Both the position numbers and the translations under genes were made by a program. Shown here piece by piece: positions 6,933 through 43,718 of a stretch of 64,000 nt of DNA. Where the stretch lies: positions 10,980 to 74,979 of the forward strand of contig JBBQGX010000001.1 in NCBI GenBank assembly GCA_038323465.1, written 5' to 3'. The notes beneath the pieces were generated by a model, which had not been told where the DNA came from, did no database searches, and was given only the letters and a program-made list of their open reading frames with translations. Source of the DNA: Minisyncoccia bacterium. Lineage in GTDB: Bacteria > Patescibacteriota > Minisyncoccia > Phycocordibacterales > UBA9973. The first letter of the stretch is position 1. Every line of letters starts with the position of its first letter.

Positions 6933-6981
6933 ATGTATAATTATAATTCATTTCTGGATTTTTTTCTAGTATAAATTTTTA

Positions 6982-8085: not shown

Positions 8086-8094
8086 TTAAAACTT

Positions 8095-21705: not shown

Positions 21706-21717
21706 AAAATTACATGT

Positions 21718-22791: not shown

Positions 22792-23852
22792 ATAGAAAGA
22801 TTATAATGACGAACAATTGATAATTCTTTATTGTTTTCTATTATCTCTTTTATCGCGAAAGTCACTACAACTCCCCCATAAATAGCAGCACTACCAAGTT
22901 GTGACCATGAGACAAGCTCTTTATCCATAACTTTCTTTACTGAAGCAATCATTTTAGGATCAACTTTATCAAATCCTCCTACAATATCATTAATTATGAT
23001 GCCACCAGCATCTTCTTTTGTAATCTTTTTATTCTTTAAATAATTCCAATGTTTAATATCTTTATCAAAAATTTTCTTATAACCTAAATCATAACGTTCA
23101 ATATGAAGTACTACTCCGTCACCATTATCGGTAATCATAATAACAGGAATTTTATATTTATAAGCTAATATACGAACCTCAATTTTCATCAAGATATCAT
23201 CAATCTCTTCTATTATGCAGTCTAACTTTTTATTTTTTAATAAAATTTCAAGATTTATTGTATTAACACCCTTTTTCATAAGTGTTACTTTTGCATATGG
23301 ATTATCCTCATATATACGACGAGAAGCAACGGTTGTTTTATTTAAACCAATCTGATGAACACCAGCTAATATTCTATTTAAATTCGTAGTATCTAAGTTA
23401 TCAAAATCTGCAATTGTTATTGAGTTAGAAATTCCGGCCTGAGTGAGAACAAAAGCGATATTACTACCAACACTCATACCAAAAACACCAACCTTGTAAT
23501 TAGAAAGCTTTTTCTGTTCTTCTTTTGTTATTAGATCTTGATTTCGATTAGTCTTAAGAGTTAAATAATCATTTTTAGTGATAATTTTTACCATAGTGTG
23601 ATTCCATGGGTAGTATACATGCGTATAATTCTTTTCATTAACTTTAACAAAGTTAGCAAAATCATTACTTTTGTAAACCTTTTTCTTATCTTCTCCTATA
23701 AAATGATGATTTTTTATAAAGAAAAGTTCTTTTAATTGAAAAGAAAAAGCATCTACATATGTAGTGTGTGGATTCTTTTTTAGAAAAATATTTACTATTT
23801 TATCATCTTTAAAAAAAATAGGACTATCACTCAAATTATTACTTGTATTCAT
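22788..23852 (-). CDS. ThiF/MoeB/E1-like adenylyltransferase with a ~100-aa N-terminal extra domain
   Basis: Rossmann GxGxxG (VGVFGMSVGS) followed by the E1 motif ADFDNLDTTNLNR. No CxxC zinc pair or rhodanese domain was noticed. Confidence 0.7.
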   Translation of the reverse strand: MNTSNNLSDSPIFFKDDKIVNIFLKKNPHTTYVDAFSFQLKELFFIKNHHFIGEDKKKVYKSNDFANFVKVNEKNYTHVYYPWNHTMVKIITKNDYLTLKTNRNQDLITKEEQKKLSNYKVGVFGMSVGSNIAFVLTQAGISNSITIADFDNLDTTNLNRILAGVHQIGLNKTTVASRRIYEDNPYAKVTLMKKGVNTINLEILLKNKKLDCIIEEIDDILMKIEVRILAYKYKIPVIMITDNGDGVVLHIERYDLGYKKIFDKDIKHWNYLKNKKITKEDAGGIIINDIVGGFDKVDPKMIASVKKVMDKELVSWSQLGSAAIYGGVVVTFAIKEIIENNKELSIVRHYNLSI

Positions 23853-23894: not shown

Positions 23895-24947
23895 TTAAAC
23901 CTCGGATTGTTGCATGGTAATACAGTGAAGGCCACCACCACCATAAATTAATTTTGTACAATCTATTTTTATTATTTTACGATTTGGAAATAATGATTGA
24001 ATTATTTCTATTGCCTTCTCATCATTTGGATCATTAAAAATAGGCATCAAGATAATAGTATTCCCGATGTAAAAATTTGTATATGATACTGGAGCCTTTT
24101 CTCCACTATTATAATTCATATGAGGCATTGGTAATTTAATGACTTTAAATTTATTACCATCTTTATCTGTAGCATTTTCTAATACCTTATAGTTATCATC
24201 CAATATAGAATAATTAGGGTCATTTATATCATCTTCATAAGCACAAACTATAGTATTTTGGCTCACAAAACGAGCTATCTCATCTATGTGTCCATCGGTA
24301 TGATCATTTGTTAGTCCTTCTTTGAGCCAAATAATATTAACTACTCCAAAATAATCTTTTAAATATTTTTCTATTTGAGGTTTTTCAACATTACCATTTC
24401 TATTTGTATTTAGGAGGCATTGCTCTGTTGTTAGAAGTGTACCTTCTCCATTCACTTCTATTGCTCCACCTTCGAGTACTATACCTGTCCTAAATATTTT
24501 ATTTTTTGAGTCATTTAAAATACTATCAAATACTTTATCATCTTTCATTAAGTCAGAAAAATAAGGATCATCTTTTTTGCCATAAGCATTGTAATCCCAA
24601 TTCACATAAGCGAGATCAACTCTCTCTGTACTCCGTAAGGTTATAGGTGTATAATCTCGAGTCCAAACATCAGCATAATCTTTTATAAAAAAGATTACTT
24701 GGGATAAATTTACATTATTATTATTTAAAATATCTTGTATTCGAATTTTTTCTATTTCATTTAAAACTAAAATATTTATAATCTCATTTTCCTCTAGTGC
24801 TTTTACAATATCACAATAAGTTTTTTCAATCTCAGGTATTAATCCTGGAAAAGTCGTATCATCATATGGCCAAGCAAGCCAAGTGGCTGAATGATTTTCC
24901 CATTCTGCTGGCATATAGTAGCCTTGTTCTTTTGGAGTTAATTCCAT
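23895..24947 (-). CDS. aguA: Agmatine deiminase
   Basis: Porphyranase-type agmatine deiminase fold with the C-terminal catalytic signature GGGGLHCITMQQ. Confidence 0.85.
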   Translation of the reverse strand: MELTPKEQGYYMPAEWENHSATWLAWPYDDTTFPGLIPEIEKTYCDIVKALEENEIINILVLNEIEKIRIQDILNNNNVNLSQVIFFIKDYADVWTRDYTPITLRSTERVDLAYVNWDYNAYGKKDDPYFSDLMKDDKVFDSILNDSKNKIFRTGIVLEGGAIEVNGEGTLLTTEQCLLNTNRNGNVEKPQIEKYLKDYFGVVNIIWLKEGLTNDHTDGHIDEIARFVSQNTIVCAYEDDINDPNYSILDDNYKVLENATDKDGNKFKVIKLPMPHMNYNSGEKAPVSYTNFYIGNTIILMPIFNDPNDEKAIEIIQSLFPNRKIIKIDCTKLIYGGGGLHCITMQQSEV

Positions 24948-24948
24948 A

Positions 24949-25818
24949 TTACTTTTTAGAAATTTTATTTGTTATTAATTTATAAGTATCAGGTCTACGA
25001 TTACGCATAAAGCCCCAACTCTCTGATATATAATTATTCATTTCTAAATCTAAAGTTTCAACAACAATCTCTTCTTTATTCTTACTTGCTTTTTTTAATA
25101 TTTTTCCAAAAGCATCAGAAACGAATGATTGACCCCAGAAGTCAGACTTACCCTCTATTCCAGTCCTATTTACGGCTATTACAGGTAGACTATTGGCAAT
25201 AGCATGTCCTCTCATCACAGTCTCCCAGGCATCATGCCAGTCACCTTCTATAGGAATTTCTCCTACTATATTACCTATAGCTGTAGGGTAAAATATCATT
25301 TCAGCACCTCCGAGCTTGGCCATACGAGCAGCTTCTGGAAACCATTGATCAAAACATATCAAAACTGCATAAGTGATATTTTTATGTTTAAATAATCTAT
25401 AACCATTATCCCCTTCAGTAAAATAATCTTTTTCGTAAAATCCTGGATCATGTGGTATATGAATTTTTCTATAAAAGGGTTGTATTTCTCCTTTTTCATT
25501 TAAAACAACAACAGTATTAAAGAATTTACCATTTTTAGCTTTTTCATAAATTGGCAAGATAATAGAGCATCCATATTTTATTGATATAGATTTAAATACT
25601 TCTGTAGATTCGCCTGGAATAGTTTCGGTAAAAGTTGAGATATCTACACCTTTTTTATTTGGGAAATATGGTGTTTTGTATAATTCTTGTAGACAAATAA
25701 TCTCGGCTCCATTTTGAGCGGCAACTTCCACCATATCTAAAGTTTTATCAAGATTTAATTTTAAATCATCGGAAACTTTACTTTGGACTAATCCAATTGT
25801 AATAATTTTTTTCTTCAT
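24949..25818 (-). CDS. aguB: N-carbamoylputrescine amidase (carbon-nitrogen hydrolase family)
   Basis: Nitrilase-superfamily E-K-C triad context (CLQELY ... ICFDQWFPE). It lies adjacent to aguA. Confidence 0.8.
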   Translation of the reverse strand: MKKKIITIGLVQSKVSDDLKLNLDKTLDMVEVAAQNGAEIICLQELYKTPYFPNKKGVDISTFTETIPGESTEVFKSISIKYGCSIILPIYEKAKNGKFFNTVVVLNEKGEIQPFYRKIHIPHDPGFYEKDYFTEGDNGYRLFKHKNITYAVLICFDQWFPEAARMAKLGGAEMIFYPTAIGNIVGEIPIEGDWHDAWETVMRGHAIANSLPVIAVNRTGIEGKSDFWGQSFVSDAFGKILKKASKNKEEIVVETLDLEMNNYISESWGFMRNRRPDTYKLITNKISKK

Positions 25819-25839
25819 GGTGTTTAAAAGCTTTGTAAA

Positions 25840-26862
25840 TTATATATACTTTTTAATTATCTCGTTGGCTTCTGTAGGATTCTTTTTACATTCAAGTAGT
25901 GCTGTCAACATTAGAGGCACCACGATTGTAGCGTCTGATTCTATTACGAACATTGGGGTATCTTTTGTAAGTTTATCCCAAGTAATCTTCTCGTTTGGAG
26001 TAGCACCTGAGTAAGAACCATATGAAGTTGTTGAATCTGAAATTTGGCAGAAATAAGCCCATGGTTTAACATTTTCTACCTCCATATCATACTTGAGAGA
26101 TGGGACTACGCATATAGGGAAATCTCCTGAGATACCACCGCCGATTTGGAAGAATCCGATACCCTCACCTTTTGAAAGTTCTTGGTATTGATCATAAAAG
26201 GCTCCCATGTATTCGATACCCGACTTGGCAATACTGGCACTACATTCACCTATTTTGACATGAGAAGCGAAAATATTTCCAAAAGTTGAATCCTCATAAC
26301 CTGGAACAACAATAGGGATATTATTCTCTGCTGCTGCAAGAAGCCAACATTCTTCTGCTTTACCTTCATGTTCGCTTTTATCTATCTGCTTGATCAAGTC
26401 ATAAAAATATTCATGCCAAAATTTACGAGTACCGTCCTCTGTTGCTTTTTTCCATGTAGGAACAATATGCTTTTCAACTGCACGAAATGCTTCGTCTTCT
26501 GGAATACTTGTATCTGTCACACGACGCATACGATCCTCGAGGATTTTAGTATCGTCTTCTTTTGTAAAATATCTATAGTCAGGAAAATCTTTATAACTAT
26601 CATGAGCTACAAGACGAAAAAGTGATTCTTCTATATTTGCACCTGTAACAGACATACCAGAGATAAGACCTTCACGGATAGCTGGAGCAAGAGTTATTCC
26701 AAGCTGAGCAGATGACATAGCACCACCCATAGCCCAAAACATTTTGCCTCCTTTTTCTATATGTTGCCAATAAGAGATAAGTGCATCTTTTGTTGCACGA
26801 GAATTAAAATTCTTGTAATTTTTTAGAATAAATTCTAATGTAGGTAGATTTGATTTTTCCAT
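25840..26862 (-). CDS. Deoxyhypusine synthase-like protein (DHS / homospermidine synthase family)
   Basis: DHS-family motifs MSVTGANIEESL and a glycine-rich NAD site. Length 340 aa. It is embedded in the polyamine operon. Confidence 0.75.
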   Translation of the reverse strand: MEKSNLPTLEFILKNYKNFNSRATKDALISYWQHIEKGGKMFWAMGGAMSSAQLGITLAPAIREGLISGMSVTGANIEESLFRLVAHDSYKDFPDYRYFTKEDDTKILEDRMRRVTDTSIPEDEAFRAVEKHIVPTWKKATEDGTRKFWHEYFYDLIKQIDKSEHEGKAEECWLLAAAENNIPIVVPGYEDSTFGNIFASHVKIGECSASIAKSGIEYMGAFYDQYQELSKGEGIGFFQIGGGISGDFPICVVPSLKYDMEVENVKPWAYFCQISDSTTSYGSYSGATPNEKITWDKLTKDTPMFVIESDATIVVPLMLTALLECKKNPTEANEIIKKYI

Positions 26863-26907
26863 AATATTTTTAATTATTAATTAGTAATTTTTAATTCTTT
26901 TATTATA

Positions 26908-28293
26908 CTACCAGCCGAAATTTTTACCAATATCTTCAGGAGATTCATGTTTTTTTGCAACTACAACATGTCCATTCTCTACTAAGATTTTCATAGGGGA
27001 CGAAAGCATGCAGTGCTGAGCAGCAAGTGAAGTTTGATATGCACCTGTGTCATAAACAACTATATACATGGGTCCCTCACTAATATCATTAGAGTCAAAT
27101 TCAGGTAGTGTAACAACTCCATCAACTCCCGTATAGATATCATCGGAATCACAAGATGAACCTGCAAGCCATACATCGGTCAAATCCCCATCCCTCTTAT
27201 TATTTACAGGTGAAATAGCCCATTTTTGCCCTATAGCCCAAGTATCAAGGAGATCATTCATAAAGCTACCATCTATCACATACCATTTTTTAGCAGGACT
27301 TTTCTTATTATTAATAGGTTTTGTATTTATAACTTTAAAGACTGAAATTTGAGCAGGAGCAACTATATAGCGACCCCATTCACAAACAAGATTTGGATGT
27401 GGAAGTTCTCTTTTTTCAGATTCTTTTTTAATAAGTTCAAAAATTTTCTCCATCAATTTATCTACAGGGTAGCCTTTGGTCCTCATATATGGTATTGGCA
27501 TACCTCCACCGATATCAAGAGTATCGAGAGATGGATTCTTTTCTTTTAATTTGAAAAAAACATCTAGTGCGTATTTAATTGGTCCAATCACATCAGAAAG
27601 TTTTTCAATTTGAGATCCAATATGATAGTGGAGTATTTTCAAATTTTTAAAAGTACTCATATCAAGAATTTCTTTGGCAGAAAACCCAAAACGATCAATA
27701 GGTTTATTCCAATAAGAACTAGCCTTGATAGGCATGTCTAGGCGGATACCGACATCGTATTTTGAATATTGTAAAAATTTAAGTTCATTGGGTCCTTCAA
27801 TGAGTGGGAAAATTTTAACACCTTTGTGTTGCAGGTCGTCAATCAGATTGATGTAATTATCGGTTTTTGGACCAGAGCAAAGAATACGGATATTCGGATT
27901 GAAAGTCTCTTGATCAAGCATTTTCTTGACCATCCAAAGTTCATTGTACGAAGAAGTCTCCAAATGAGCTCCTTCACCAACAATAGACATAACTATTTCT
28001 TTACTTTGGTTTACCTTCATCGGATAATGATAAAAGAATTTACCCTTATATCCAACTTTCTTTGAAAGTGCAGCAGCTAAATCAAGAAAGTCTTCTAAGC
28101 GTTCTTCTATCACAAAAGGCATCAGTATCTCTAGTGATGTCCCAAACTTTTCGGCTAAATATTTAACATTATAAATATTGTGACCTTCTTTAATTATGAG
28201 ATCTCCCTCCTTATTAAAATCAAAATACTGAGTATTGAAATCATTGACACCAAGCTTCCAAAGTTTCTTGGAAGCGATTGAACGTTTAGTCAT
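26908..28293 (-). CDS. PLP-dependent fold-III decarboxylase, probably arginine decarboxylase feeding the agmatine route
   Basis: PLP-lysine motif YHYPMKVNQ. TIM-barrel plus beta-sandwich architecture of Orn/DAP/Arg decarboxylases. It sits first in the operon with aguA/aguB. Confidence 0.7.
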   Translation of the reverse strand: MTKRSIASKKLWKLGVNDFNTQYFDFNKEGDLIIKEGHNIYNVKYLAEKFGTSLEILMPFVIEERLEDFLDLAAALSKKVGYKGKFFYHYPMKVNQSKEIVMSIVGEGAHLETSSYNELWMVKKMLDQETFNPNIRILCSGPKTDNYINLIDDLQHKGVKIFPLIEGPNELKFLQYSKYDVGIRLDMPIKASSYWNKPIDRFGFSAKEILDMSTFKNLKILHYHIGSQIEKLSDVIGPIKYALDVFFKLKEKNPSLDTLDIGGGMPIPYMRTKGYPVDKLMEKIFELIKKESEKRELPHPNLVCEWGRYIVAPAQISVFKVINTKPINNKKSPAKKWYVIDGSFMNDLLDTWAIGQKWAISPVNNKRDGDLTDVWLAGSSCDSDDIYTGVDGVVTLPEFDSNDISEGPMYIVVYDTGAYQTSLAAQHCMLSSPMKILVENGHVVVAKKHESPEDIGKNFGW

Positions 28294-28394: not shown

Positions 28395-30557
28395 TTAACC
28401 AACTAATTCTTTTTTTGTTCTCAGGTATTGATTGTTGAGATCAATGATTGATTGAGGTATTTTTCTTTCTTGTATAATTCTTAGTTCATCATACAAACCA
28501 CTCAAAATATCTTTCATATTACCCACATTGTTTTGTTTTGTAAATTTTTCTATACCATAACTATTAGATATAGATGGTATCGGAACTTTTAAAACACTAG
28601 TTCCTGAAGATTTTTTAAGTTCCGCTTCTTTATTAGTTATATTTGTTGTCATTTCTGTTAATTTAGTATCAAAATCAAATAAAACATCTTCCCATTCTTT
28701 TTTACCCTTCCCTGTAAAGAAAAACTTTGGTTTCTTTAATTCATAATCACTTTTTTTTACAGAATAAATACGGATATCTTTTTTGCCTTGATCTATTTCA
28801 GACTGAAGACTCTCTATTTTTTTATCAATCGAGGGTATTCTAATAAGACCACGACTAAAATTTATATCATTATCTGCTGGTACAGAAGATTCAAACTTAG
28901 TAAGTTCCTCTATGGCTTCCAGTGCTTGTTTTCCACGAGATTCAAATTCTTTTATAACTGAAGTTATCTGGTTTAAATTAACAGCTCTTAATTCTATTTC
29001 TTCTCCTTTCTGTATTCCATCTCTAAATTCTACTTCAGCTAAATAAAAATCAATAACAGATTTCATTTTATTAATAACCTTCTCTTTATCCTCTTCTATT
29101 TTCTTAATAAAATCTTCAACATATAGTTTTTCCTCATCAAAAGAAGTATCTTTATTGGGTGATTTTTTATGATAGCTCCCACCAAGAGAATAAGGTTCAT
29201 TACCATAATGCATTGAACTATTTATAGAAACAGTTTCCTCGCAAATGTTTTTTCCAAACAAATAAAAATCATTTTCATTTTTTATATTTTTTAATTTATC
29301 TATATTAGCTTTTAAATCCTGAGTTCTAATTTCTAAAACGCCTTGCAGTTTAACATAATTAAATTCTGGTATAAATTTATCACGACTCTCTAAATTTTCT
29401 TTAAATTTAAGACCTTTATTTTTATCAAAAGAATCCTCTGGTTTAAAAGATAATATATAATCAATACTGGCTGAACCATCTCTATATCCGTATTCGAATT
29501 TTTTAATATCAACTGAAACCCCAAAATTTTTATACAGCTCTGTGTGTTTTTTCTCTAATTCATGAATAAATTCTCTTTTTACTTGTTCGAATTTATCCAT
29601 AAGAGATCTTGCTTTACCTTTCTCTTCTTCAGAAAAAGATGATATTCCTTCTTTTGCCTTTTTTAAATCTAAAACAACTGAATTTTTTTCAAAAGATTCA
29701 TTAATTTTATCACTATAAAATTTTTTTAATGTTTCTTGTAGTACATCTTTTCCATAAACAGATTCAGTCTTCATAACTTCTTTATCATTTGATAAAAGTT
29801 CTGGAGCAAAGACAAAATTATCAATATTTACATGGTCATTTTCAACTTTAATCTCTAATCCTTTTACATAAAGAATAATTTTTTGACCTTCATTTTCAAT
29901 ATTAAAAGTTACCGGAGTAATATCCTTTTCTAGTTCTTTTGAAAGATTTTCTATGATCATTTCTCTCTCTTCTGGAATTTTTACTTTTTCTTTAATTAAT
30001 TCATTTTCAATCTTCCCAAGTCTTTCATTTATGGAATTACTTAAAAAAGTATAAAAATAATCATGACTTGACTCTTCTTTTGGAATTACAACACCTAATT
30101 CTTGTAACTTTAAAATAAGAGCTTCATTTGTCTCTTTTAATCCATCTTTATTTAATAATGATTTTTTGTAATCTAATACTTCATCTGCATCAGGATTTTT
30201 ATCAACCAAATCCTCCGTATTTTTAATACCAGCTTCTTCTAAAACACTCTTTAATTCAGGGTCTTTATCGGCACTTTCTATAATAGAGTCTAAGGTAACC
30301 TTACTAGAAGAAACTTCATTCATGACTTGATTTCTATATTCTTTCATCCCTGTACCACTTTCTTTTTTATTACTTGAATCTGATTTAAAATTCAAAGAAT
30401 TCTGAATTATTTCAAGTAATTGTTTTTGATTTTCAAGTTTTTGAATATTAGAATTTGCTACTTCAACTTCTCCTTTCTTTATTTCTTGCCCTTCTTTTTC
30501 TTTTTGAGATCTTAAATCATTTGCTTTATCTAGAAATGACGCCTTGATTGTTACCAT
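28395..30557 (-). CDS. Large K/E-rich hypothetical protein (720 aa) immediately downstream of dnaJ
   Basis: Long ORF whose composition is consistent with extended helical/coiled-coil segments. No TM helix or signal peptide. No recognisable catalytic motif. A 46-bp gap from dnaJ suggests co-transcription. Confidence 0.6.
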   Translation of the reverse strand: MVTIKASFLDKANDLRSQKEKEGQEIKKGEVEVANSNIQKLENQKQLLEIIQNSLNFKSDSSNKKESGTGMKEYRNQVMNEVSSSKVTLDSIIESADKDPELKSVLEEAGIKNTEDLVDKNPDADEVLDYKKSLLNKDGLKETNEALILKLQELGVVIPKEESSHDYFYTFLSNSINERLGKIENELIKEKVKIPEEREMIIENLSKELEKDITPVTFNIENEGQKIILYVKGLEIKVENDHVNIDNFVFAPELLSNDKEVMKTESVYGKDVLQETLKKFYSDKINESFEKNSVVLDLKKAKEGISSFSEEEKGKARSLMDKFEQVKREFIHELEKKHTELYKNFGVSVDIKKFEYGYRDGSASIDYILSFKPEDSFDKNKGLKFKENLESRDKFIPEFNYVKLQGVLEIRTQDLKANIDKLKNIKNENDFYLFGKNICEETVSINSSMHYGNEPYSLGGSYHKKSPNKDTSFDEEKLYVEDFIKKIEEDKEKVINKMKSVIDFYLAEVEFRDGIQKGEEIELRAVNLNQITSVIKEFESRGKQALEAIEELTKFESSVPADNDINFSRGLIRIPSIDKKIESLQSEIDQGKKDIRIYSVKKSDYELKKPKFFFTGKGKKEWEDVLFDFDTKLTEMTTNITNKEAELKKSSGTSVLKVPIPSISNSYGIEKFTKQNNVGNMKDILSGLYDELRIIQERKIPQSIIDLNNQYLRTKKELVG

Positions 30558-30603: not shown

Positions 30604-31698
30604 TTATAAACCATCTTCACGTAGTTTGTCAATGAGTTCCCTATTTTTACGAGAAAGTTTTGTGGGCATATCTATATTAATTTTGATTATAATATCACCT
30701 CGTCCGCGAGTGGAAGGTACACCTTTGCCACGAACACGAAGCATCTCGCCATTATTGATACCTTCGGGAATCTTTACCTCCATATTGTGATTATCTAGTG
30801 TTTTTAAATTATAAGTCATCCCGAGAAGCGCATCTGTTAATTTGATTTTCAAATCCATCGTTAGATTTAGTCCATCACGAGAATATATTGAGTGAGATTT
30901 TACATTTAATTTCAAATACAAATCGCCAGATTCACCACCCTGAATCGCTTCACCCTTACCATTGACTCGTAATGTCTCACCATTGCTGACCCCAGCTGGA
31001 ATTTTTACTTTTATTTCTTCATCTTTCTTTTTGACTCCAGAGCCATGACAATCATTACATTTATCAGATGGAATCTGACCAGATCCAAAACAATTCTCAC
31101 AAGTCTTTACACTTGCAAAATTCCCAAGTATTGAACGTCTTATTTCTTTAACTTGACCTTGTCCATTACAAACAGAACATGTATTCATCTTGGTTCCTGG
31201 TTTACTACCGGTGCCATCACAACTATCACATTTTGATTGTTTATTTATTCGGACGATATGTTCTATCCCAAAAATAGCATCTGAGAATGTGAGATTTATC
31301 TCCATAGATAAATCTCTGCCTCTTTTTACTTTTTGTCTGCTACGTCCACCACCACCAAAAAAATCTCCAAAGATATCACCTAGATCACCCATATCAAATT
31401 CAACCCCACCGTTTTGACCACTGAAATCAAAACCCCCAAATCCACCTTGCCCTCCAAATCCACCACCTCCACCAGGAAATCCTTGTGGTCCATCTGCATT
31501 ACCAAACTGATCAAACGATGCACGTTTTTTATCATCAGAAAGAACCTGATAAGCTTCATTGGCTTCTTTGAATTTAGTATCATCACCCTTGTTTTTATCT
31601 GGATGATATTTATGAGCCATTTTATGAAATGCTTTCTTTATTTCATCCTTTGAGGCATTTTTTTCTATTCCTAATATTTTATAATAATCTTTAGACAT
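30604..31698 (-). CDS. dnaJ: Chaperone DnaJ
   Basis: J-domain with HPD (KYHPDKN). G/F-rich region. Four CxxCxGxG zinc-finger repeats. C-terminal substrate-binding domains. Confidence 0.92.
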   Translation of the reverse strand: MSKDYYKILGIEKNASKDEIKKAFHKMAHKYHPDKNKGDDTKFKEANEAYQVLSDDKKRASFDQFGNADGPQGFPGGGGGFGGQGGFGGFDFSGQNGGVEFDMGDLGDIFGDFFGGGGRSRQKVKRGRDLSMEINLTFSDAIFGIEHIVRINKQSKCDSCDGTGSKPGTKMNTCSVCNGQGQVKEIRRSILGNFASVKTCENCFGSGQIPSDKCNDCHGSGVKKKDEEIKVKIPAGVSNGETLRVNGKGEAIQGGESGDLYLKLNVKSHSIYSRDGLNLTMDLKIKLTDALLGMTYNLKTLDNHNMEVKIPEGINNGEMLRVRGKGVPSTRGRGDIIIKINIDMPTKLSRKNRELIDKLREDGL

Positions 31699-31830
31699 AA
31701 TTTAATAAAGAAAATTAAATAATCTTTCCAGAGGAGCTTGGGAGGCTGTCGAGCCGAGCACGAGGAATTTTCTAGTAAGAAAATATCCGTGTCCTCTGGG
31801 GAGATTATTTTATTTTCTTTTTTACTTACT

Positions 31831-33729
31831 TTATTTACTTTCTGGATTCTCATTTACTTCTGCTTCTTTGATTTCTGGTTCTTGCTCCTCTGGAATTTTA
31901 TTTTCTGACGAAGAAGTAGATTCAGGATTGGCTTTTGCCATAGCTTCTCCTATCTTTGACATTTCATTTGAAAGTTCCATGACTGCTTTTTTGATTACTT
32001 CAATATCATTACTATCCTTAGCTGTTTTAACTGCTGTAATTTTATTTTCTATTTCTGTTTTTATTTCAGGAGTAACTTTATCACCATATTCTTTTATAGA
32101 TTTCTCTGCTGTGAAAATCATCATTTCAGCAGTATTCTTCTCATCAGCTAATTCTTTTTTCTTTACATCTTCTTCTGCGTGAAGTTCAGCATCATCTTTC
32201 ATCTTTTTTATATCAGCGTCTGTAAGTCCTGAACTTGCTTCTATGCGAATCGATTGAACTTTACCTGAAGCTTTATCCATAGCTTTTACATTCAATATCC
32301 CATTGGCATCAACATCAAAAGTCACTTCGACTTGAGGAATACCTCGTGGTGATGGTGGAATACCATCTAAGATAAATCTACCGAGTGATTTATTGTCAGA
32401 TGCCATAGGACGTTCACCCTGAGTTATATGAATCTCCACAGAAGTCTGATTGTCAGCAGCAGTTGAGAATATTTGTGATTTAGAACTAGGGATTGTAGTA
32501 TTACGCTCTACGAGTTTTGTAGCAACACCACCAAGTGTTTCAATACCAAGTGAAAGTGGTATAACATCAAGCAAAAGAACATCACGAACATCACCCTGAA
32601 GAACTCCAGCTTGAACAGCAGCACCTAGCGCAACAACTTCATCAGGATTAATTGAACGATTTGGTTCTTTGCCGAACAATTTCTTCACTTCTTCCACAAT
32701 TTTTGGCATTCTTGTTTGTCCTCCAACAAGAATGATTTCATTTATTTCACTCATCTTGAATGGAGATGCCTCAATGGCACGCTTTGTGATTTCTATAGAA
32801 CGAGTTACATATTCTTCTGCTAGTGACTCAAGAGTTGCACGAGACATCTTTAAGAGTAAGTGTTTTGGACCTGATGCATCGGAAGTAATAAATGGAATAT
32901 TGATCTCTGATTCCATGGTTGTTGAGAGTTCGTGTTTTGTTTTCTCTGCTGCTTCCTTTAGACGCTGTAGAGCAAGAACATCTTTAGTTACATCAATACC
33001 TGATTCCTTCTTGTATTCATCTGCAATCCATCTGACAACTTTTTGATCGATATCTTCACCACCCATGTGTGAGTCGCCGTCTGTTGATTTAACTTCTATG
33101 ACATCATCTCCAACTTCAAGAACAGAAATATCAAAAGTACCTCCACCAAAGTCATATACGACTATCTTCTCATTTTTCTTTGTATTGAATCCATATGCGA
33201 GAGCTGCAGCAGTAGGCTCGTTGATGATACGCTTTACATCAAGTCCAGCTATTACTCCAGCATCTTTTGTAGCTTTACGTTGAGCATCGTTAAAATACGC
33301 AGGCACAGTAATAACTGCTTCTGTTATTTTCTCGCCGAGTTTTGCTTCAACATCAGCTTTTATTTTACTCAATATCATCGCAGAAATTTCTTCTGGGCGA
33401 AGCCATTTATCTCCCATCTTTGACTCTACTCCACCAGTATTTCCTTTTTGAATCTTGTAAGAAATAGTTTTTTCATCTTTTTGGATTTCTGGGTCATCAT
33501 ACATGTGACCAATAAATCTCTTGATACCAGAAATAGTATTTTCTGGATTTGTAACTGCTTGACGCTTTGCGAGAAGTCCAACCATACGATCACCATTCTT
33601 TGTTATTGTAACAACAGATGGAGTGGTACGTGTACCCTCAATATTTTCTATAATTTTTGGTTGACCACCCTCGATGATAGCTACCGCACTATTTGTTGTA
33701 CCCAAATCTATACCTATTATTTTTGCCAT
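31831..33729 (-). CDS. dnaK: Chaperone DnaK (Hsp70)
   Basis: Hsp70 signatures [16 protein letters not shown] and [11 protein letters not shown]. Length 632 aa. Confidence 0.95.
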
Positions 33730-33876
33730 ATATTTTTTGTAAATTAACTAATAATTAATAATAATAATTTTATAAATTCATAGCAAAGTTATAGTTTGAT
33801 TTTCGCTGTCGCATAGGGCCCCTCTGGGGTAAAGCGCAAGAAAATTAGATTATAACTTTGTGAAGAATTAAATTAA

Positions 33877-33904
33877 TTATATACTAAATAAATTCTTTTG
33901 ACAA
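33877..33904 (-). promoter_or_regulatory. Predicted sigma-70 promoter of dnaK: -35 TTGTCA (complement of 33899-33904), -10 TATAAT (complement of 33877-33882)
   Basis: Near-consensus hexamers with a 16-nt spacer, about 150 nt upstream of the dnaK ATG. The -35 overlaps the left arm of the 30-bp palindrome. Confidence 0.5.
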
Positions 33905-33930
33905 CTATTTAGTGATCACTAAATAGTTGT
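33901..33930. promoter_or_regulatory. 30-bp perfect palindrome ACAACTATTTAGTGA|TCACTAAATAGTTGT, a candidate operator shared by the divergent promoters
   Basis: An exact inverted repeat is seen in the sequence. Its two ends overlap the -35 hexamers of the dnaK promoter and the regulator-gene promoter. It is not a CIRCE, HAIR or CtsR-box sequence. Confidence 0.6.
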
Positions 33931-33958
33931 TGAATATTATATACACTTGTGATACAAT
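33930..33958 (+). promoter_or_regulatory. Predicted sigma-70 promoter of the PaaX-like regulator gene: -35 TTGAAT (33930-33935), 17-nt spacer, -10 TACAAT (33953-33958)
   Basis: Hexamers lie 10 nt upstream of the ATG at 33968. The -35 abuts the right arm of the palindrome. Confidence 0.45.
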
Positions 33959-33967
33959 GTCAATATT

Positions 33968-34495
33968 ATGAAAAAGCGTGATTTTTCAAGGAAAATTATA
34001 AAGATACTATCAGAAAGACCTGCCGTATCAGTCGGAGAACTAGAAGAACGAATTGTTCTTGATAAAGATGGCCTATATGCCTTAAATCGCTCTATAAAGA
34101 GCCTCCGAGATGGTGGACTGATCGAGAACATAGATTCTGGTCAAAACCAATATGCTAAGCTCACAACAGAAGGCAAGAAGAAGGCAAACAGTCTAAAACT
34201 TGAATGCGAAAATGCTATCATAAGTAATACTTGGGATGGATATTGGAGAATCATACTTCTTGATATTCCAGAAGAAAGAAAGAATGAAAGAGAAGCACTT
34301 CGTTACCTTTTGAAAAAAGCAGGATTTGCTTGTCTGAAAAATTCAGTATGGATATCTATTTACCCCTTTGAGCACTTATTCACAAATATTAAAAATGACT
34401 TAAATTTATCTACCGAGCTAATCATAATAGTCACAGATAAAATAGACAAAGAAACAGAAAAGGAATTTTTCTCGCTCTGTGGATTAAATAAATAA
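33968..34495 (+). CDS. PaaX-family-like transcriptional regulator (N-terminal winged helix plus PaaX_C-like domain)
   Basis: The N-terminal wHTH reads KIIKILSERPAVSVGELEERIVLDKDGLYALNRSIKSLRDGGLI. The C-terminal WDGYWRIILLDIPEERKNEREALRYLLKKAGFACLKNSVWIS matches the PaaX C-domain pattern (W.G.W.lv..iPe..R..lr..L...GF..L..svW). At 175 aa it is shorter than E. coli PaaX. Confidence 0.55.
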   Translation: MKKRDFSRKIIKILSERPAVSVGELEERIVLDKDGLYALNRSIKSLRDGGLIENIDSGQNQYAKLTTEGKKKANSLKLECENAIISNTWDGYWRIILLDIPEERKNEREALRYLLKKAGFACLKNSVWISIYPFEHLFTNIKNDLNLSTELIIIVTDKIDKETEKEFFSLCGLNK

Positions 34496-34555
34496 AATCA
34501 TAAAACATCCACAGAAATAATCTTTTTAAAAAGATTATTTCTGCTCTTGTTTTAT

Positions 34556-35197
34556 TTATTTTTTATATTCAAAAATATTTACTCTAGCTGGACGGATTAT
34601 ACGGTCACCAAGCCTATAACCGACTTGAATTATTTTCTCTATAGAATGATCTTTTTCTTCTTTATCTGTAACAATTGATTCTATAGATTCATGAAGAATA
34701 GGATCAAACTTCACTCCCACTTCATCAATTTTTTCTATGCCAGACTCCGCAAATCCATTTATAAATTGAGAATAGATGTATTCAACGCCCATACGCCAAT
34801 TCTTGTCTACTTTTTCCCAAGCTTCTTTGTTTGCGAAAGCCATATCAAAACTATCAAGAGCAGGAAGTAGATTCCTTGCAAATTTTTCTTTAGTTACAAC
34901 AGAACTCTTTGTTTGATGATCACCGTGCTCTTTTTGTAGATTGATATAGTCAGCCTTTGCTCTCTGCCAACCAGTCAAATATTCCTCCTTTTCTGCTCTG
35001 CAAAGTTTCAAATCCTCACGAAGTTTTTTAGTTACATCTTTAGATGATAATGCTTCTCCATCTTCTGTGCTATCTACATATGTGACATCTGAAACATCTG
35101 AGACATCATGAGTACTCTCAAGTTCCTTTGCCAATAGTTCACTTACTTCTTTATTTTTATCTTCATCATTCATCTTTGTACTATAACAAAAAATCAA
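34556..35197 (-). CDS. grpE: Nucleotide exchange factor GrpE
   Basis: Acidic N-terminal tail, a long paired helix and a C-terminal beta domain (IIRPARVNIF). Length 213 aa. Confidence 0.9.
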   Translation of the reverse strand: MIFCYSTKMNDEDKNKEVSELLAKELESTHDVSDVSDVTYVDSTEDGEALSSKDVTKKLREDLKLCRAEKEEYLTGWQRAKADYINLQKEHGDHQTKSSVVTKEKFARNLLPALDSFDMAFANKEAWEKVDKNWRMGVEYIYSQFINGFAESGIEKIDEVGVKFDPILHESIESIVTDKEEKDHSIEKIIQVGYRLGDRIIRPARVNIFEYKK

Positions 35198-35237
35198 ACT
35201 TTTTTCAAAGTTCGATTTTTTTATAAATTATATAAAA

Positions 35238-40054: not shown

Positions 40055-41479
40055 TTAATTTTTCGTCAAATCTTTTAAAATAATATTTATATTTTTAGGT
40101 ACAGATGGCAATAACGATGACCAAAATGGAATAATAGAGACCTTAGCAGATGATATTCCAGGGTCATTTTTAAATATTAGAGCAACACTATTCTTGTTTT
40201 TACCTGCGAGTGAATCTTTTAATTCTAAAATATTTGGTACCCAATGCATAGAAATACTGCCAGTGAGATTAAAATCAAAAGTTTCTATTTCTTTACTAAT
40301 AGACTGATCTTTATTTATAAAATTAAAAGTGAGCCCGGAAAGATTTGGTTTTTCTATCTCAGATCTTTCTTTGTCTCCTATATCTGGTAATAATTTACTA
40401 ATAATTGAATCTGATAGTGAACTTTCTTTTAATAAATAGGCATAGAGTGTTGTATTAATTTCTACTCTAGTATTAGGATTCTTGGATGTTATATTTTGAC
40501 CAAAATCATATAAATATCTGACAGCGTTTGGATATAATATATATCCTCCTGGAACTTGAGCATTTAGTTTCCGTAAAAGTTTATCTGAAAGAGAAGATAA
40601 ATTTGTTGATTGTAAATCAGCCTTTCCTTTTTCATCCATCAGATATACCAATCCAACCATACCACCCGAGAGAGGAGTTTTCAATTTACCATATATTTTA
40701 TCATACTTAGTTGTATTTTTAAAAGCTGTAATATAAAAACTTGAAGGTGATCCATTATATGCCTCACCTGGCAAAAATGCAGTTATACCAACATTTGCTT
40801 GACCCGGAATAGTTTTTGTTTTGTCAATTTTGTCTTGCAAAAAGGCAGGAATCATAACTATTTCATTAGTTTTATAAGTTTTTCCTTTTTCATCTGAGAC
40901 AAAGGAACCAGCCGCTATTTTTTGCACTGTTTTACTAAATTCATTATATAGAGTTATCTCTCCTTTTGCTTTTTCTTTCACATCCTGAGATGATGTTAAG
41001 ACTATATCTTTATATTCCTTATCCGAAACAATCATTAATTCAAAAGGAATATTATTTTTATTTTTTGAAGCTGAAAAGACTTGGTTTTTAAGTTCAAAAA
41101 CCTTATTTTTAGGTATAATTGTAATCTTTGCACTCAAAAGAAAAGTAGAAAATAAATATACCATACCAATAATCAAAGAAAGAAATAATATATAAAAAAA
41201 TTTATAATTAAAATAGTTCCTACTATTGGGAAGTTGCGGAGTTTGAGAAATCCTAGCTGAAGAATGCGTTATTTTTTTCTTATTTAAAAAATCATACTTC
41301 GATGACTCAAATGAAGACCTGGGTTCTATTTGACGAGAATTTAAACCTTCGTCAGAATTATTGTAAAGGTTTTCAATAATAACATCTTCAATGTGTTTTT
41401 TGTTTACTTTGTTATTTGTATTAAATTTTACATCTTCAATTATTCTTCTATTCATATAGTTCCATTTTTCTTGTAACAC
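40055..41479 (-). CDS. Hypothetical bitopic membrane protein (about 90-aa cytoplasmic N-terminus, one TM helix, large extracytoplasmic domain)
   Basis: Single strong TM helix (FFYILFLSLIIGMVYLFSTFLLSA). No recognisable motifs. It overlaps the 3' end of the upstream actin-like ATPase gene by 32 nt. Confidence 0.55.
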   Translation of the reverse strand: MLQEKWNYMNRRIIEDVKFNTNNKVNKKHIEDVIIENLYNNSDEGLNSRQIEPRSSFESSKYDFLNKKKITHSSARISQTPQLPNSRNYFNYKFFYILFLSLIIGMVYLFSTFLLSAKITIIPKNKVFELKNQVFSASKNKNNIPFELMIVSDKEYKDIVLTSSQDVKEKAKGEITLYNEFSKTVQKIAAGSFVSDEKGKTYKTNEIVMIPAFLQDKIDKTKTIPGQANVGITAFLPGEAYNGSPSSFYITAFKNTTKYDKIYGKLKTPLSGGMVGLVYLMDEKGKADLQSTNLSSLSDKLLRKLNAQVPGGYILYPNAVRYLYDFGQNITSKNPNTRVEINTTLYAYLLKESSLSDSIISKLLPDIGDKERSEIEKPNLSGLTFNFINKDQSISKEIETFDFNLTGSISMHWVPNILELKDSLAGKNKNSVALIFKNDPGISSAKVSIIPFWSSLLPSVPKNINIILKDLTKN

Positions 41480-42629
41480 TTATAGATTCTATCATTAGGA
41501 ATGGATCACAAGGACTATTTTTAATATTACACAGACTAAGTAATTCTGATCCTTCAATGGCAACTAATGTAAATTTTTTATTGGGTACCATTGATTGTAT
41601 ATATTCTTCGTTATTTATCAATTCAATAAACCAATCTTTTACGTCTTCATCTATTGTTAAAAATATTACATTAGGAAGAGTCAGTATACGAGGAAGAGTA
41701 TTAATACATTCTCTAAATGATTTCCCCCAAGATTTTTTTATGACTTCTAGGATAGGAAGGAGCTTACTCTCTTCTTTTTGTGATAAAGTCTTATTTCGGT
41801 AAAGATTAAATAATTCATAAGCATCCCTTAGCTCTATGTTCATCTTTTTACAAATTTCTCTAAAAAAAGTCTTTCTACCATAAGGAAACGAAAGCGAGTC
41901 TTTTAGCACACCTTTTGTTATAATTCCAATATCAGTTACCTCACCACCGATATCCAGGATTAGATACGAATCATGATCCATATATCTATCCCGAACCGCA
42001 ACAAAAGAAGAAACCATAAATGAAGAAAATGAAATCGGAGTATGATGAAAATTTTTAGAAATTGTTTCTTTTATTTTATCTAAAAATAACTTTGGAGATA
42101 AAGATATGACCATATTCATTTCAATTGATCGAGTACGTTTACCAAGCGGATCATCAACACGATAACCATTCAGGGATACCCCAACTATAGGATGTTCTAT
42201 GCCCTCTGGAGTACTTTCAACATCTTCGTATTTATTTTTATAAATTTCATTAAGCGAAGAAATTTCCTTCTCCAATAGTTCATCAACTATTCTTTTTGTA
42301 AAAACAAAAGAACGCTCTTTGGACATCTTTATAAGTCTAGTTTCAGAAATATACCAAGGTGAAGCAAGTACACAGACTATCTCATCCGGTGCACCAAGTT
42401 TACTTTGATATATAGATGACGAAGTAAAACCAAGAGCAAGAATCATATCTTTCATAAAAATATTGAAATCGAGTTCTGATCTATCTACAATATCTGTCCG
42501 AGTTGATTTTATAATCATAGGTAAATTTTTATCATCAGATGAAATTTTTACAAGTGCTCCCCCAACACTTCCAGAGCCTATATCAAATATAGCTACAAGT
42601 TTTTCTTTTTTTGATGAAAATAATCCCAT
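41448..42629 (-). CDS. Actin-fold (ASKHA) ATPase of the FtsA/PilM family
   Basis: Phosphate-1 motif AIFDIGSGSVGGALV. A second nucleotide-binding motif LILDIGGEVTDIGII. Length 393 aa. No ftsZ gene follows it. Confidence 0.6.
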   Translation of the reverse strand: MGLFSSKKEKLVAIFDIGSGSVGGALVKISSDDKNLPMIIKSTRTDIVDRSELDFNIFMKDMILALGFTSSSIYQSKLGAPDEIVCVLASPWYISETRLIKMSKERSFVFTKRIVDELLEKEISSLNEIYKNKYEDVESTPEGIEHPIVGVSLNGYRVDDPLGKRTRSIEMNMVISLSPKLFLDKIKETISKNFHHTPISFSSFMVSSFVAVRDRYMDHDSYLILDIGGEVTDIGIITKGVLKDSLSFPYGRKTFFREICKKMNIELRDAYELFNLYRNKTLSQKEESKLLPILEVIKKSWGKSFRECINTLPRILTLPNVIFLTIDEDVKDWFIELINNEEYIQSMVPNKKFTLVAIEGSELLSLCNIKNSPCDPFLMIESISVTRKMELYE

Positions 42630-42681
42630 ATAGATATATTATACTATAAAAAAAGAAAAAAGCATCGGTTTTAAACAAAAA

Positions 42682-42715
42682 AAGAAGCGTTATCATTTTC
42701 ATGACAACGCTTCTT
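42682..42715 (-). terminator. Intrinsic terminator downstream of the lipoprotein gene
   Basis: 10-bp stem aagaagcgtt/aacgcttctt followed by seven Ts on the minus strand. Confidence 0.5.
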
Positions 42716-42746
42716 ACATATTTTAGCTCATGATTTATTTCATTTG

Positions 42747-43718
42747 CTATTTTTTTATACGAAACAAGGAAATATCTCCTTCGATTCCATATATCTCACT
42801 TTCGTACCATTTGCATCCATCATCCCCACAAATCACAACATACGCAATATCAAACGGAGCATCATAATTTACTTCTGAAGAAGTATTATTCATTGATACA
42901 CGATAACTTATGCATAATTCAAGTCCAGTTTCTGGGTCAATTCCAACAAGATTAACAGTTTGAGCACCTTGTAGTAAAATTGTTGGAATTTTTACTTTAG
43001 CAACTGTATTCTCTGGTTTTATTTCATACTTTAAATATAAAACGGTAGACCCAAAAAAATCAATTGGACCAGTAGTGTATTCTTTACGGAAATCAGCACC
43101 ATCGTCTTGTGTGACCAATAGTTCCCAATGTCCACCAGATAATGGAGCGAGTTTAACTATTCCGTTAAAACCGTTCCCAAGGTATGAAATTGGTGAAATA
43201 GTTTTATCATCAAACATAAATAAATAATTAACATTTATTATGTAATTACTATTTCTAAAACTAAAATACCTAGCATAAGGACAGGCAAATTCAATTTCAA
43301 TAGAATATACATCTGGATTAATTTTTCCATCTACAATTGGGTACTTCTGATCAGCAGTCAAGTATTCCTTGCGTGCTCCATTTAGTAACTCATAATAGAC
43401 AACAGGGCGAACAAATATTCTTTCGTTTAGATTATTCGTATAAACGAAACAAGAACTAGTATCAGCTGAGATAATTCTCACTGATAAGCTCTTATCTTCA
43501 AGAGCTCCTGACTTAAGGCCTAAACGAGCAGTTAAAATTTCAGACCTAGTCGGAACTTTGAACGCCAGTGCTTGAATTTTATAAGCAATGGTGTCGATGA
43601 ATGTCTTATCCACAACATTAGTGGTTTCAGGTACTAGAAATACTTCATTTTTTTCGCATGAGCTAATAGCTACAAATGCAAATACAACAAATGCTAAAAC
43701 AAAAAAATTTCTTAACAT
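42747..43718 (-). CDS. Hypothetical lipoprotein
   Basis: Signal peptide with a lipobox (AISSC). No conserved domain is recognisable. Confidence 0.6.
   Translation of the reverse strand: MLRNFFVLAFVVFAFVAISSCEKNEVFLVPETTNVVDKTFIDTIAYKIQALAFKVPTRSEILTARLGLKSGALEDKSLSVRIISADTSSCFVYTNNLNERIFVRPVVYYELLNGARKEYLTADQKYPIVDGKINPDVYSIEIEFACPYARYFSFRNSNYIINVNYLFMFDDKTISPISYLGNGFNGIVKLAPLSGGHWELLVTQDDGADFRKEYTTGPIDFFGSTVLYLKYEIKPENTVAKVKIPTILLQGAQTVNLVGIDPETGLELCISYRVSMNNTSSEVNYDAPFDIAYVVICGDDGCKWYESEIYGIEGDISLFRIKK

Follow-up and report, generated by a model that had tools for sequence, protein, structure and literature searches.

Which protein controls the Hsp70 genes in bacteria of the Candidate Phyla Radiation (CPR)? 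The known heat-shock regulators are few (sigma-32, HrcA, CtsR, HspR and RheA), and to our knowledge almost nothing is known about gene regulation in the CPR, the members of which are mostly uncultivable. The question is raised by a 64-kb window of patescibacterial DNA (the window being the whole stretch that was analyzed), in which a 175-amino-acid (aa) open reading frame (ORF) at 33968-34495 on the plus strand, named REG here, is located between grpE and dnaK and is divergent from dnaK. The surroundings of REG consist of dnaK, dnaJ, grpE and ribosomal protein genes. A first-pass annotation of the window had suggested that REG is a PaaX-like regulator of the dnaK locus, and this is still the best reading, because a PaaX-like protein of short form occupies a position next to dnaK that is conserved in synteny, and because a conserved palindrome is placed on the promoters. 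More specifically, we propose that REG acts as an autoregulated local repressor of the dnaK-dnaJ (Hsp70) operon in Paceibacteria (Patescibacteria/CPR), a reading predicted from the sequence to which we assign a probability of roughly 60%.

The REG protein and its family

The ORF list supports REG as a real gene and places its neighbors where the first-pass annotation had placed them: dnaK (Hsp70), the presumed regulated gene, is found at 31831-33729 and dnaJ downstream of it at 30604-31698, both on the minus strand, and grpE is found at 34556-35197, also on the minus strand and convergent with REG. The dnaK product is 72-96% identical to the DnaK proteins encoded beside REG in related loci, and dnaJ, which follows dnaK in most of these loci, is probably part of the same transcription unit.

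To judge from its domain content, REG is a ligand-domain-free, truncated PaaX-like protein rather than a PaaX. It is equivalent to the first half of a repressor of the PaaX type, with a winged helix and then the Cas2-like domain that for PaaX is described as the dimerization motif. The single significant Pfam match of REG is to PF20803 (PaaX_M; E-value 1.9e-20, 73.1 bits with a cutoff of 24), which aligns residues 87-166 with positions 2-81 of the 83 positions of the profile. The motif WDGYWRIILLDIPEERKNEREALRYLLKKAGFACLKNSVWIS, which the first-pass annotation had taken as a match to the PaaX C-domain, falls inside this region, so that the family had been named correctly but the domain is the central Cas2-like one and not PaaX_C. 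Indeed, Pfam gave no PaaX_C match, and the protein stops at residue 175 right after the middle domain. The other PaaX domain that was searched for, PF07848, was not reported even at E 10, and the N-terminus gave weak Pfam matches only (MarR_2 and HTH_20, E-values of about 0.05). Despite this weak sequence support, the winged helix that had been postulated for the N-terminus is seen in an AlphaFold2 model (mean predicted local distance difference test score (pLDDT) 83.6), in which helices 6-16, 22-29 and 34-48 and strands 52-56 and 61-65 make up such a fold. REG would thus comprise a winged helix (residues ~5-66), a linker helix (67-79) and a Cas2-like/PaaX_M domain with a ferredoxin fold (~87-171).

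When the model was compared with PDB structures by Foldseek, the only near-full-length matches (166-172 aligned columns) were 8A39, 3L09 and 3KFW, which are PaaX of E. coli W, a PaaX-like protein of Jannaschia and Rv0674, respectively. Proteins of the MarR and ArsR families match the winged helix alone and were ranked after these PaaX structures. Together with the PaaX_M domain, these full-length matches uphold the PaaX-like nature of REG. Sequence searches of PDB, whether with REG alone, with a profile of 42 orthologues or with the C-terminal domain alone, returned weak MarR matches or none, and the kinship with PaaX therefore shows only via the Pfam model and the predicted fold. The NCBIfam model for the PaaX equivalog (TIGR02277) aligns residues 43-167 of REG with positions 41-162 of its 279 positions, an alignment that runs colinear to the first half of PaaX and scores 36.9 bits versus a cutoff of 264.55. 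A weak NCBIfam match to cas2 (TIGR01573; E-value 0.044, 14 bits versus a cutoff of 24.5) was located at residues 95-131. Within the Cas2-like domain, Asp99 after strand 1 and N125-S126 after helix 1 are invariant, and we take these residues to resemble Cas2 motifs. The short form of REG is not a truncation artefact, because the relatives are all short (164-208 aa among the best 120 of 1443 homologues) and because only 60 bp and a terminator lie between the REG stop codon and the end of grpE. The absence of the C-terminal effector domain makes it unlikely that phenylacetyl-CoA is sensed.

The 1443 homologues were matched at E <= 1e-3 in a word-indexed search, and an exhaustive search returned 2605 cluster representatives, just 10 of which had E <= 1e-30. 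As delimited by such comparisons, the close orthologous group of REG is narrow and lies inside a broad family of ~180-200-aa proteins. Public annotation of relatives reads 'hypothetical', 'PaaX-like central Cas2-like domain-containing protein' or 'PaaX'. On the contigs of three orthologues with 63-85% identity, grpE is followed by REG on the opposite strand and then by dnaK, and dnaK is adjacent and divergent to REG in the related loci L001-L006. A synteny scan of one genome per GTDB species, with neighbors identified by tblastn using DnaK, DnaJ, GrpE and S9 of the window, covered 59 loci, nearly all of them labelled Paceibacterota, Nomurabacteria, Parcubacteria or Patescibacteria. In all 40 loci with at least 51% identity and upstream DNA, dnaK is divergent from REG and next to it, a few of these loci (e.g. 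L004) having one small extra gene between dnaK and the putative operator described below, and of the 42 loci that reach this identity, 32 have grpE within 6 kb after REG. The position beside dnaK, to which the first-pass annotation had drawn attention in this one genome, is thus conserved in relatives. In four Campbellbacteria-like loci at 44-49% identity, REG is divergent from a grpE-dnaK-dnaJ operon, as was confirmed by reading L050, and the surroundings of 13 paralogues with 30-41% identity are free of chaperone genes. Because dnaK adjacency goes with at least 51% identity and chaperone genes are missing at 30-41%, the dnaK-linked REG proteins are, on this comparison, one orthologous group within a larger family of short transcription factors with a PaaX_M domain.

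The palindrome between dnaK and REG

The 238-bp gap between the start codons of dnaK and REG contains, at 33901-33930, a perfect 30-bp palindrome (15+15-bp inverted repeat), ACAACTATTTAGTGATCACTAAATAGTTGT, which is composed of ACAACTATTTAGTGA followed by TCACTAAATAGTTGT and which we regard as the putative operator. A palindrome had been alluded to in the first-pass annotation, and it proved to be perfect, conserved and overlapping with promoters. It occurs only once in the window, a match appeared in none of 100 shuffles, and no further operator copy or half-site was found in the window beyond chance. The consensus derived from 109 distinct flanks and 60 distinct operators reads ACAAGTATTTnGYGRYCRCnAAATACTTGT. 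When mismatches were tolerated in the search, each of the 47 orthologue loci with upstream DNA proved to contain exactly one copy, always just upstream of REG. When metagenomes were scanned with the exact pattern AGTATTTNGYGRYCRCNAAATACT, 84 contigs matched; 83 of these matches adjoin REG and/or dnaK or sit at a contig end that shows one neighbor, and the remaining one is on a 1.4-kb contig (L120) in which neither REG nor dnaK was found. Beside any other gene class, no match was present in the 84 contigs.

Within the operator, positions 11 and 20 covary towards complementarity (permutation p-value of about 0.0006). However, positions 13 (Y) and 18 (R) vary independently (p-value 0.79), C-A combinations at 13/18 (13 operators) being about as frequent as T-G combinations (15 operators), and the central GACC or GGTC, which is not complementary to itself, switches its orientation from one lineage to another. 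The independence of positions 13 and 18 and the flipping centre point to two half-sites that are read separately by a protein, rather than to a pairing hairpin. Among the residues of REG, 54 in the wing strand and 47 at the end of the recognition helix show the best correlation with the variable base of the operator, which gives weak support to a direct contact.

Promoter elements overlap or adjoin the palindrome in both directions. A conserved dnaK promoter at 33904-33876 on the minus strand, with −35 TTGTCA (33904-33899), a 17-bp spacer and −10 TATAAT (33881-33876), matches 11 of 12 consensus positions in a promoter scan. The first four bases of this −35 are the palindrome end TTGT (the dnaK-side arm being ACTTGT), to which CA is added, and the dnaK-side consensus across the 109 distinct loci is CAAAA...gGTaTATAaT. 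A second, upstream promoter-like site in the dnaK direction (33963-33936, minus strand; TTGACA-16-TATAAT) matches 12 of 12 positions and has its −10 ending 5 bp before the palindrome, which would put the start of its transcripts at the operator; L001 and L004, as read by eye, are arranged in the same way. The REG promoter at 33930-33958 on the plus strand has a −35 (TTGAAT) that abuts the palindrome, a 17-bp spacer and an extended −10 (TGaTACAAT) that ends 9 nt before the ATG. In relatives, TGnTATAAT is found 6-9 nt before the REG start codon, with a −35, TTGT(AT/TG), that is formed by the operator end, the overlap with the palindrome amounting to four bases in many of them. Since in most loci only about 17-60 nt separate the operator from the ATG of REG, there is room for the REG promoter only in overlap with the operator or upstream of it. 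Regardless of which promoters are in use, a palindrome-bound protein would cover core promoter elements in both directions.

The gene grpE appears to be set apart from this arrangement. It has an extended −10 promoter at 35208-35180 on the minus strand, where no operator is present, and transcription would begin at or next to the ATG at 35173, which is the likely true start of grpE. Between the 3' ends of REG and grpE, a terminator scan identified a terminator-like hairpin that is bidirectional (34511-34544, both strands; a 14-15-bp stem followed by a T-run) and that would uncouple grpE transcription from that of dnaK. Because of this promoter and this terminator, dnaK-dnaJ can be regarded as a transcription unit separate from grpE, and REG would govern dnaK-dnaJ but not grpE. 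In both REG (33950-33970) and grpE (35173-35208), an extended −10 (TGnTAnnnT) lies 6-9 nt before the ATG and there is no Shine-Dalgarno sequence, which points to leaderless or near-leaderless mRNAs.

Variations on this organization were observed in more distant or rearranged loci. The paralogues at 30-41% identity in L058 (5866-6408), L064 (5857-6603), L061 and L055 have a 30-36-bp palindrome of their own upstream, in several cases with a CGATCG centre, such as TGACAAATTTTTAAGCGATCGCTTAAAAATTTGTCA in L064, and in two paralogue loci the adjoining ORFs resemble glycosyltransferase or sugar-transferase genes when their translations are read by eye. The short PaaX_M family seems to serve Patescibacteria as a general repertoire of local regulators. 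In the Campbellbacteria-like locus L050, another palindrome, GTTTTTCA-N6-TGAAAAAC within TTGACAAGT...AAATACTTG, takes the place upstream of REG, which suggests that the operator evolved together with the more divergent N-terminal domain; a 642-aa ORF (6420-8348) that is convergent with REG in L050 reads like ftsH, with AAA protease motifs recognized by eye. The junction between dnaK and REG tolerates insertions (L004, L073 and L120). In L004 a 173-aa AAA_18 kinase-like gene (3178-3699), which is probably co-regulated, is located between the operator and dnaK, in L073 a 157-aa ORF of no known function (572-1045) is located between the operator and REG, and in L120 the sole long ORF beside the operator (124-1353) looked IS200/Y1-transposase-like by eye.

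Proposed control of dnaK-dnaJ and alternative explanations

In the mechanism that we propose, a REG dimer would bind the palindrome at 33901-33930, and one bound dimer would block RNA polymerase at both of the back-to-back promoters, so that bound REG would repress dnaK-dnaJ and its own leaderless mRNA. In this genome grpE, having its own promoter, would not be a target, whereas in the Campbellbacteria-like relatives REG faces the whole grpE-dnaK-dnaJ operon. By analogy with other systems, proteotoxic or heat stress would cause REG to lose DNA binding, either because REG is intrinsically heat-labile, as in RheA or CtsR, or because free DnaK is needed to keep REG active, as in HspR. The fact that the dnaK locus is the only detected target fits such a homeostatic loop. 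Given the lack of an effector domain and this sole detected target, thermolability or DnaK feedback would be the most economical type of signal.

Several observations weigh against this reading. DNA binding, repression as the sign of regulation and the stress signal are predictions. The centre of the operator lies about 47 bp upstream of where transcription from the conserved dnaK promoter is predicted to start, and activators can occupy such positions too. In one lineage (L073, L088) an inserted gene parts REG from the operator, and tight autoregulation is therefore not universal. The regulon scan employed one strict pattern, which degenerate sites (e.g. at groESL) would escape. The correlation between residues and the operator base is confounded by phylogeny, and the inter-domain geometry of the AlphaFold2 model, which is a monomer model, is uncertain (predicted template modeling score (pTM) 0.50).

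The alternative that survives best, although we judge it rather improbable, is that REG is an activator which, bound just upstream of the −35 and overlapping it, would recruit RNA polymerase to the dnaK promoter under stress. An operator centred at about −47 from the predicted start of the TTGTCA-17-TATAAT promoter would suit such a role, since some activators sit similarly, but a near-consensus promoter (11/12) with a consensus −10 should need no activation. Moreover, the site abuts or overlaps the −35 of REG and lies at +1 of the second, perfect promoter, both of which are typical repressor geometries, and PaaX, the characterized relative, acts as a repressor in competition with RNA polymerase (PMC9493321). 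Repression is favored over activation for these reasons, namely the near-consensus dnaK promoter, the position of the site on the REG −35 and the repressor function of PaaX.

Very improbable, in our estimate, is a true PaaX-type metabolic sensor that would be released from the DNA by an acyl-CoA (phenylacetyl-CoA or a similar compound, perhaps made by a PaaK-like ligase) and that would couple dnaK to aromatic-acid metabolism. This view draws on the PaaX_M domain and PaaX-like fold of REG and on a 505-aa ORF at 20188-21705, 12 kb from REG, which the first-pass annotation had described as a PaaK-like ligase of possible relevance. NCBIfam indeed reports a similarity of this ORF to PaaK, FlxY and F390-synthetase-type ligases, but at 24-35 bits versus cutoffs of 458-700, that is, 15-20 times under the cutoffs, and Pfam gave no match even at E 10. 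At best, the ORF belongs to the PaaK/F390-synthetase ligase superfamily as a remote member; the ligase-like character stands as a sub-threshold similarity, whereas its relevance to REG is unsupported, there being no operator copy or half-site near the ligase cluster. In addition, REG is without the domain reported to bind phenylacetyl-CoA, its TIGR02277 score is far below the cutoff, Pfam scans of ~40 window ORFs revealed no paa catabolic genes, and the conserved partner of REG across genomes is dnaK and not a ligase.

It is just as improbable that the palindrome is a nucleic-acid hairpin (an RNA thermometer or stabilizer in the dnaK leader, or a DNA cruciform) and that REG is unrelated to it or acts elsewhere. 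The terminator scan does flag the palindrome as a 17-bp stem, positions 11 and 20 covary, and the dnaK mRNA would begin with the palindrome if the upstream promoter were used. Yet the independence of positions 13 and 18 means that pairing is not maintained on either strand, and the centre is of a kind that does not pair with itself. The palindrome strictly co-occurs with REG, forms the dnaK −35 and abuts or overlaps the REG −35, and where the conserved dnaK promoter is used it lies upstream of the transcript.

Two other, strongly structured elements flank dnaK, and both were considered as parts of the system and dropped. A long hairpin in the dnaK leader (33784-33860, minus strand; z-scores −4.0 and −4.8) has an AT-rich stem and the GC-rich core GCTTTACCCCAGAGGGGCCC, and its outer stem differs wholly in sequence from that of the L001 version yet still pairs. 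It was rejected as a thermometer of the system because it is present in 11 of 117 dnaK leaders and is lineage-specific; in other lineages, other GC-rich hairpins are found at the same place in the leader, some of them directly before the dnaK ATG. The leader hairpin shares the 9-mer CCCCAGAGG, of which the window has only two copies, with a second element in the dnaK-dnaJ spacer. This element of about 100 nt (31714-31813, minus strand; −44 kcal/mol, z-score −7.7, 94 bits with a covariance model) is a three-way junction with a long AT-rich outer stem and two inner hairpins. The covariance model detected 54 copies in related loci, with up to four per locus; among the loci with copies are L009, L011, L024, L025, L042, L043, L082 and L107, and 13 of the GTDB loci searched have the element. 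All 10 copies in dnaK-dnaJ spacers are dnaK-sense, whereas copies in dnaK leaders occur in both orientations, and others are located in REG-grpE spacers and elsewhere, L107 having an inverted tandem pair. In the 54 copies, 94.7% of the cells are paired, 28 of 29 pairs show double compensatory changes and there are hardly any G-U pairs. A REP/BIME-like single-stranded-DNA hairpin element is suggested by this restriction of covariation to Watson-Crick pairs, by the dispersal of the copies, and by a Y1_Tnp-like gene in L001 and the Y1-like ORF of L120 (by eye), the alternative to this being a functional RNA. Owing to its occurrence in both orientations, in several spacers and in other places, the three-way junction was dropped as a cis-regulatory leader, and it is probably a dispersed intergenic repeat family that is not part of the REG-operator system. 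Rfam yielded one tRNA as the only match in searches that covered the whole window as well as the control region and the dnaK-dnaJ spacer by themselves. Least probable of all is a catalytic or RNA-binding Cas2-like domain with which REG would process or stabilize such structured elements in the dnaK leader or the dnaK-dnaJ spacer, since the weak cas2 match, the invariant Asp99 and N125-S126 with their presumed likeness to Cas2 motifs and the strong structures on either side of dnaK are set against elements that occur in a minority of loci (leader hairpin and three-way junction alike), in both orientations and in other genomic places, while REG and the DNA palindrome are universal in the clade, and since we know of no nuclease activity of the PaaX middle domain.

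The window as a whole has the gene content of a reduced genome of housekeeping type, with aminoacyl-tRNA synthetases, cell-wall synthesis, ribosomal proteins and rpoA, and it is AT-rich, with a G+C content of about 30-40% around the dnaK/REG locus. The ligase-like ORF is part of a minus-strand cluster (19178-23852) that also contains an Acg/Rv3131-family FMN oxidoreductase (19178-20203), a ScyB-like tryptophan/amino-acid dehydrogenase (21718-22791) and an Rv1355c-family ThiF-like adenylyltransferase (22788-23852), and that is adjoined by a seven-transmembrane (7TM) histidine kinase (17541-19157). The cluster may encode a pathway for a small molecule or a modified amino acid, and in a reduced genome such a pathway would be unusual. 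A 720-aa lysine/glutamate-rich ORF without a Pfam family (28395-30557, minus strand) lies directly downstream of dnaJ and is followed by a polyamine gene set (23895-28293, minus strand) that comprises agmatine deiminase, a carbon-nitrogen hydrolase (N-carbamoylputrescine amidase-like), a deoxyhypusine/homospermidine synthase-like gene and an arginine/ornithine decarboxylase; the decarboxylase and the synthase-like gene are located after dnaJ in L001 as well. At 40055-43718 (minus strand), three ORFs in a row (474, 393 and 323 aa) have no Pfam family either.

Comparison with known regulators

A more far-reaching claim, which we put forward tentatively and consider less probable than local repression, is that REG is the master, HrcA-independent regulator of Hsp70 in Paceibacteria. 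It would then represent a new class of heat-shock repressor, combining a winged helix with a Cas2-derived dimerization domain and sensing proteotoxic stress directly and without a small-molecule ligand, through thermal lability or DnaK binding. If true, this would add a new family to HrcA, CtsR, HspR, RheA and sigma-32 control, and it would imply that a ligand-free stress switch either was the origin of the PaaX scaffold or is a form to which this scaffold can be reduced. The regulatory module is well conserved and apparently undescribed; a literature search of incomplete coverage found no paper that links PaaX-like proteins to dnaK or describes heat-shock regulation in these bacteria. It is a compact module that can be read from sequence alone (a protein, a sharp 30-bp operator and two overlapping promoters), it is conserved in more than a hundred distinct loci, and it is testable without culturing. 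The PaaX architecture would thus exist without its ligand domain and be recruited to a wholly different regulon, which makes the database labels 'PaaX' and 'hypothetical' misleading for metabolic reconstructions of these genomes.

PaaX consists of a winged helix, a motif for dimerization and, at the C-terminus, a five-helix domain that binds phenylacetyl-CoA, and it represses from the operator TGATTC-N27-GAATCA (PMC9493321). Like PaaX (COG3327, TIGR02277), REG has a winged helix followed by a PF20803 domain, colinear with the first ~160 residues of PaaX, and it is a probable dimeric repressor that would act on divergent promoters through a long inverted repeat and would probably be autoregulated. 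Unlike PaaX, it is without PaaX_C and a detectable PF07848, its presumed site is a contiguous palindrome rather than the spaced PaaX operator, its target would be dnaK instead of aromatic catabolism, and it belongs to Patescibacteria and not to Proteobacteria or Actinobacteria. Of seven PaaX features, REG lacks four (C-terminal domain, equivalog score, paa context and operator type) and possesses the central domain, while the winged helix is present at the fold level. The resemblance to Cas2 is a weak local match only, in a domain that is fused to a winged helix. Cas2, in contrast, is a stand-alone protein of ~90-100 aa that is encoded with cas1 and a CRISPR array, and no cas genes were found among the scanned window ORFs.

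RheA and CtsR serve by analogy as models for stress sensing by a 175-aa protein without a ligand-binding domain, and RheA is moreover divergently encoded from its target and autoregulated. They belong to other families with other operators, and thermosensing by REG would be a property assigned to it purely by this analogy. REG has no CtsR match, and the CtsR box GGTCAAANANGGTCAAA has chance-level matches in the window, none of them near dnaK.

HrcA is a repressor that is usually encoded upstream of grpE-dnaK-dnaJ and is controlled by GroEL. REG takes the regulatory slot of the Hsp70 cluster, most clearly in the Campbellbacteria-like loci, where it is immediately upstream of grpE-dnaK-dnaJ in the usual place of hrcA, and its presumed operator is, like the CIRCE element, a long inverted repeat at a promoter. 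However, REG is divergently transcribed and has no HrcA domains, with no match to HrcA families in Pfam or NCBIfam. The CIRCE sequence (TTAGCACTC-N9-GAGTGCTAA) is absent from the window at up to 3 mismatches and from the chaperone promoters in 1.3 Mb of related loci at up to 4 mismatches. No hrcA was found in the scanned window ORFs or the flanking DNA, more than 90% of the genome being outside the data, and no operator copy was found at any groESL gene, the groESL loci likewise being outside the data. Probes for GroEL and HrcA detected neither by tblastn in the 1.3 Mb, a weak result given that these loci are all from the same neighborhood. A search for hrcA or groEL outward from the end genes of the window led no further, one of the two proteins having no record and the other being on a 4.5-kb contig.

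The closest system in logic is that of HspR, a repressor of the MerR family for which DnaK serves as co-repressor and the gene of which lies in the dnaK operon of Actinobacteria, Helicobacter and others. REG has no MerR match in Pfam or NCBIfam, and the HspR target HAIR (CTTGAGT-N7-ACTCAAG) has chance-level matches in the window and none in the dnaK control region. Both are nevertheless small repressors in the dnaK locus, autoregulated and with the dnaK operon as main target, which makes homeostatic feedback possible, the role of REG being a predicted one. They differ in that HspR combines a MerR-type helix-turn-helix with a coiled coil where REG has a winged helix with a Cas2-like domain, and in that HspR is the last gene of its operon, whereas REG is divergent from dnaK.

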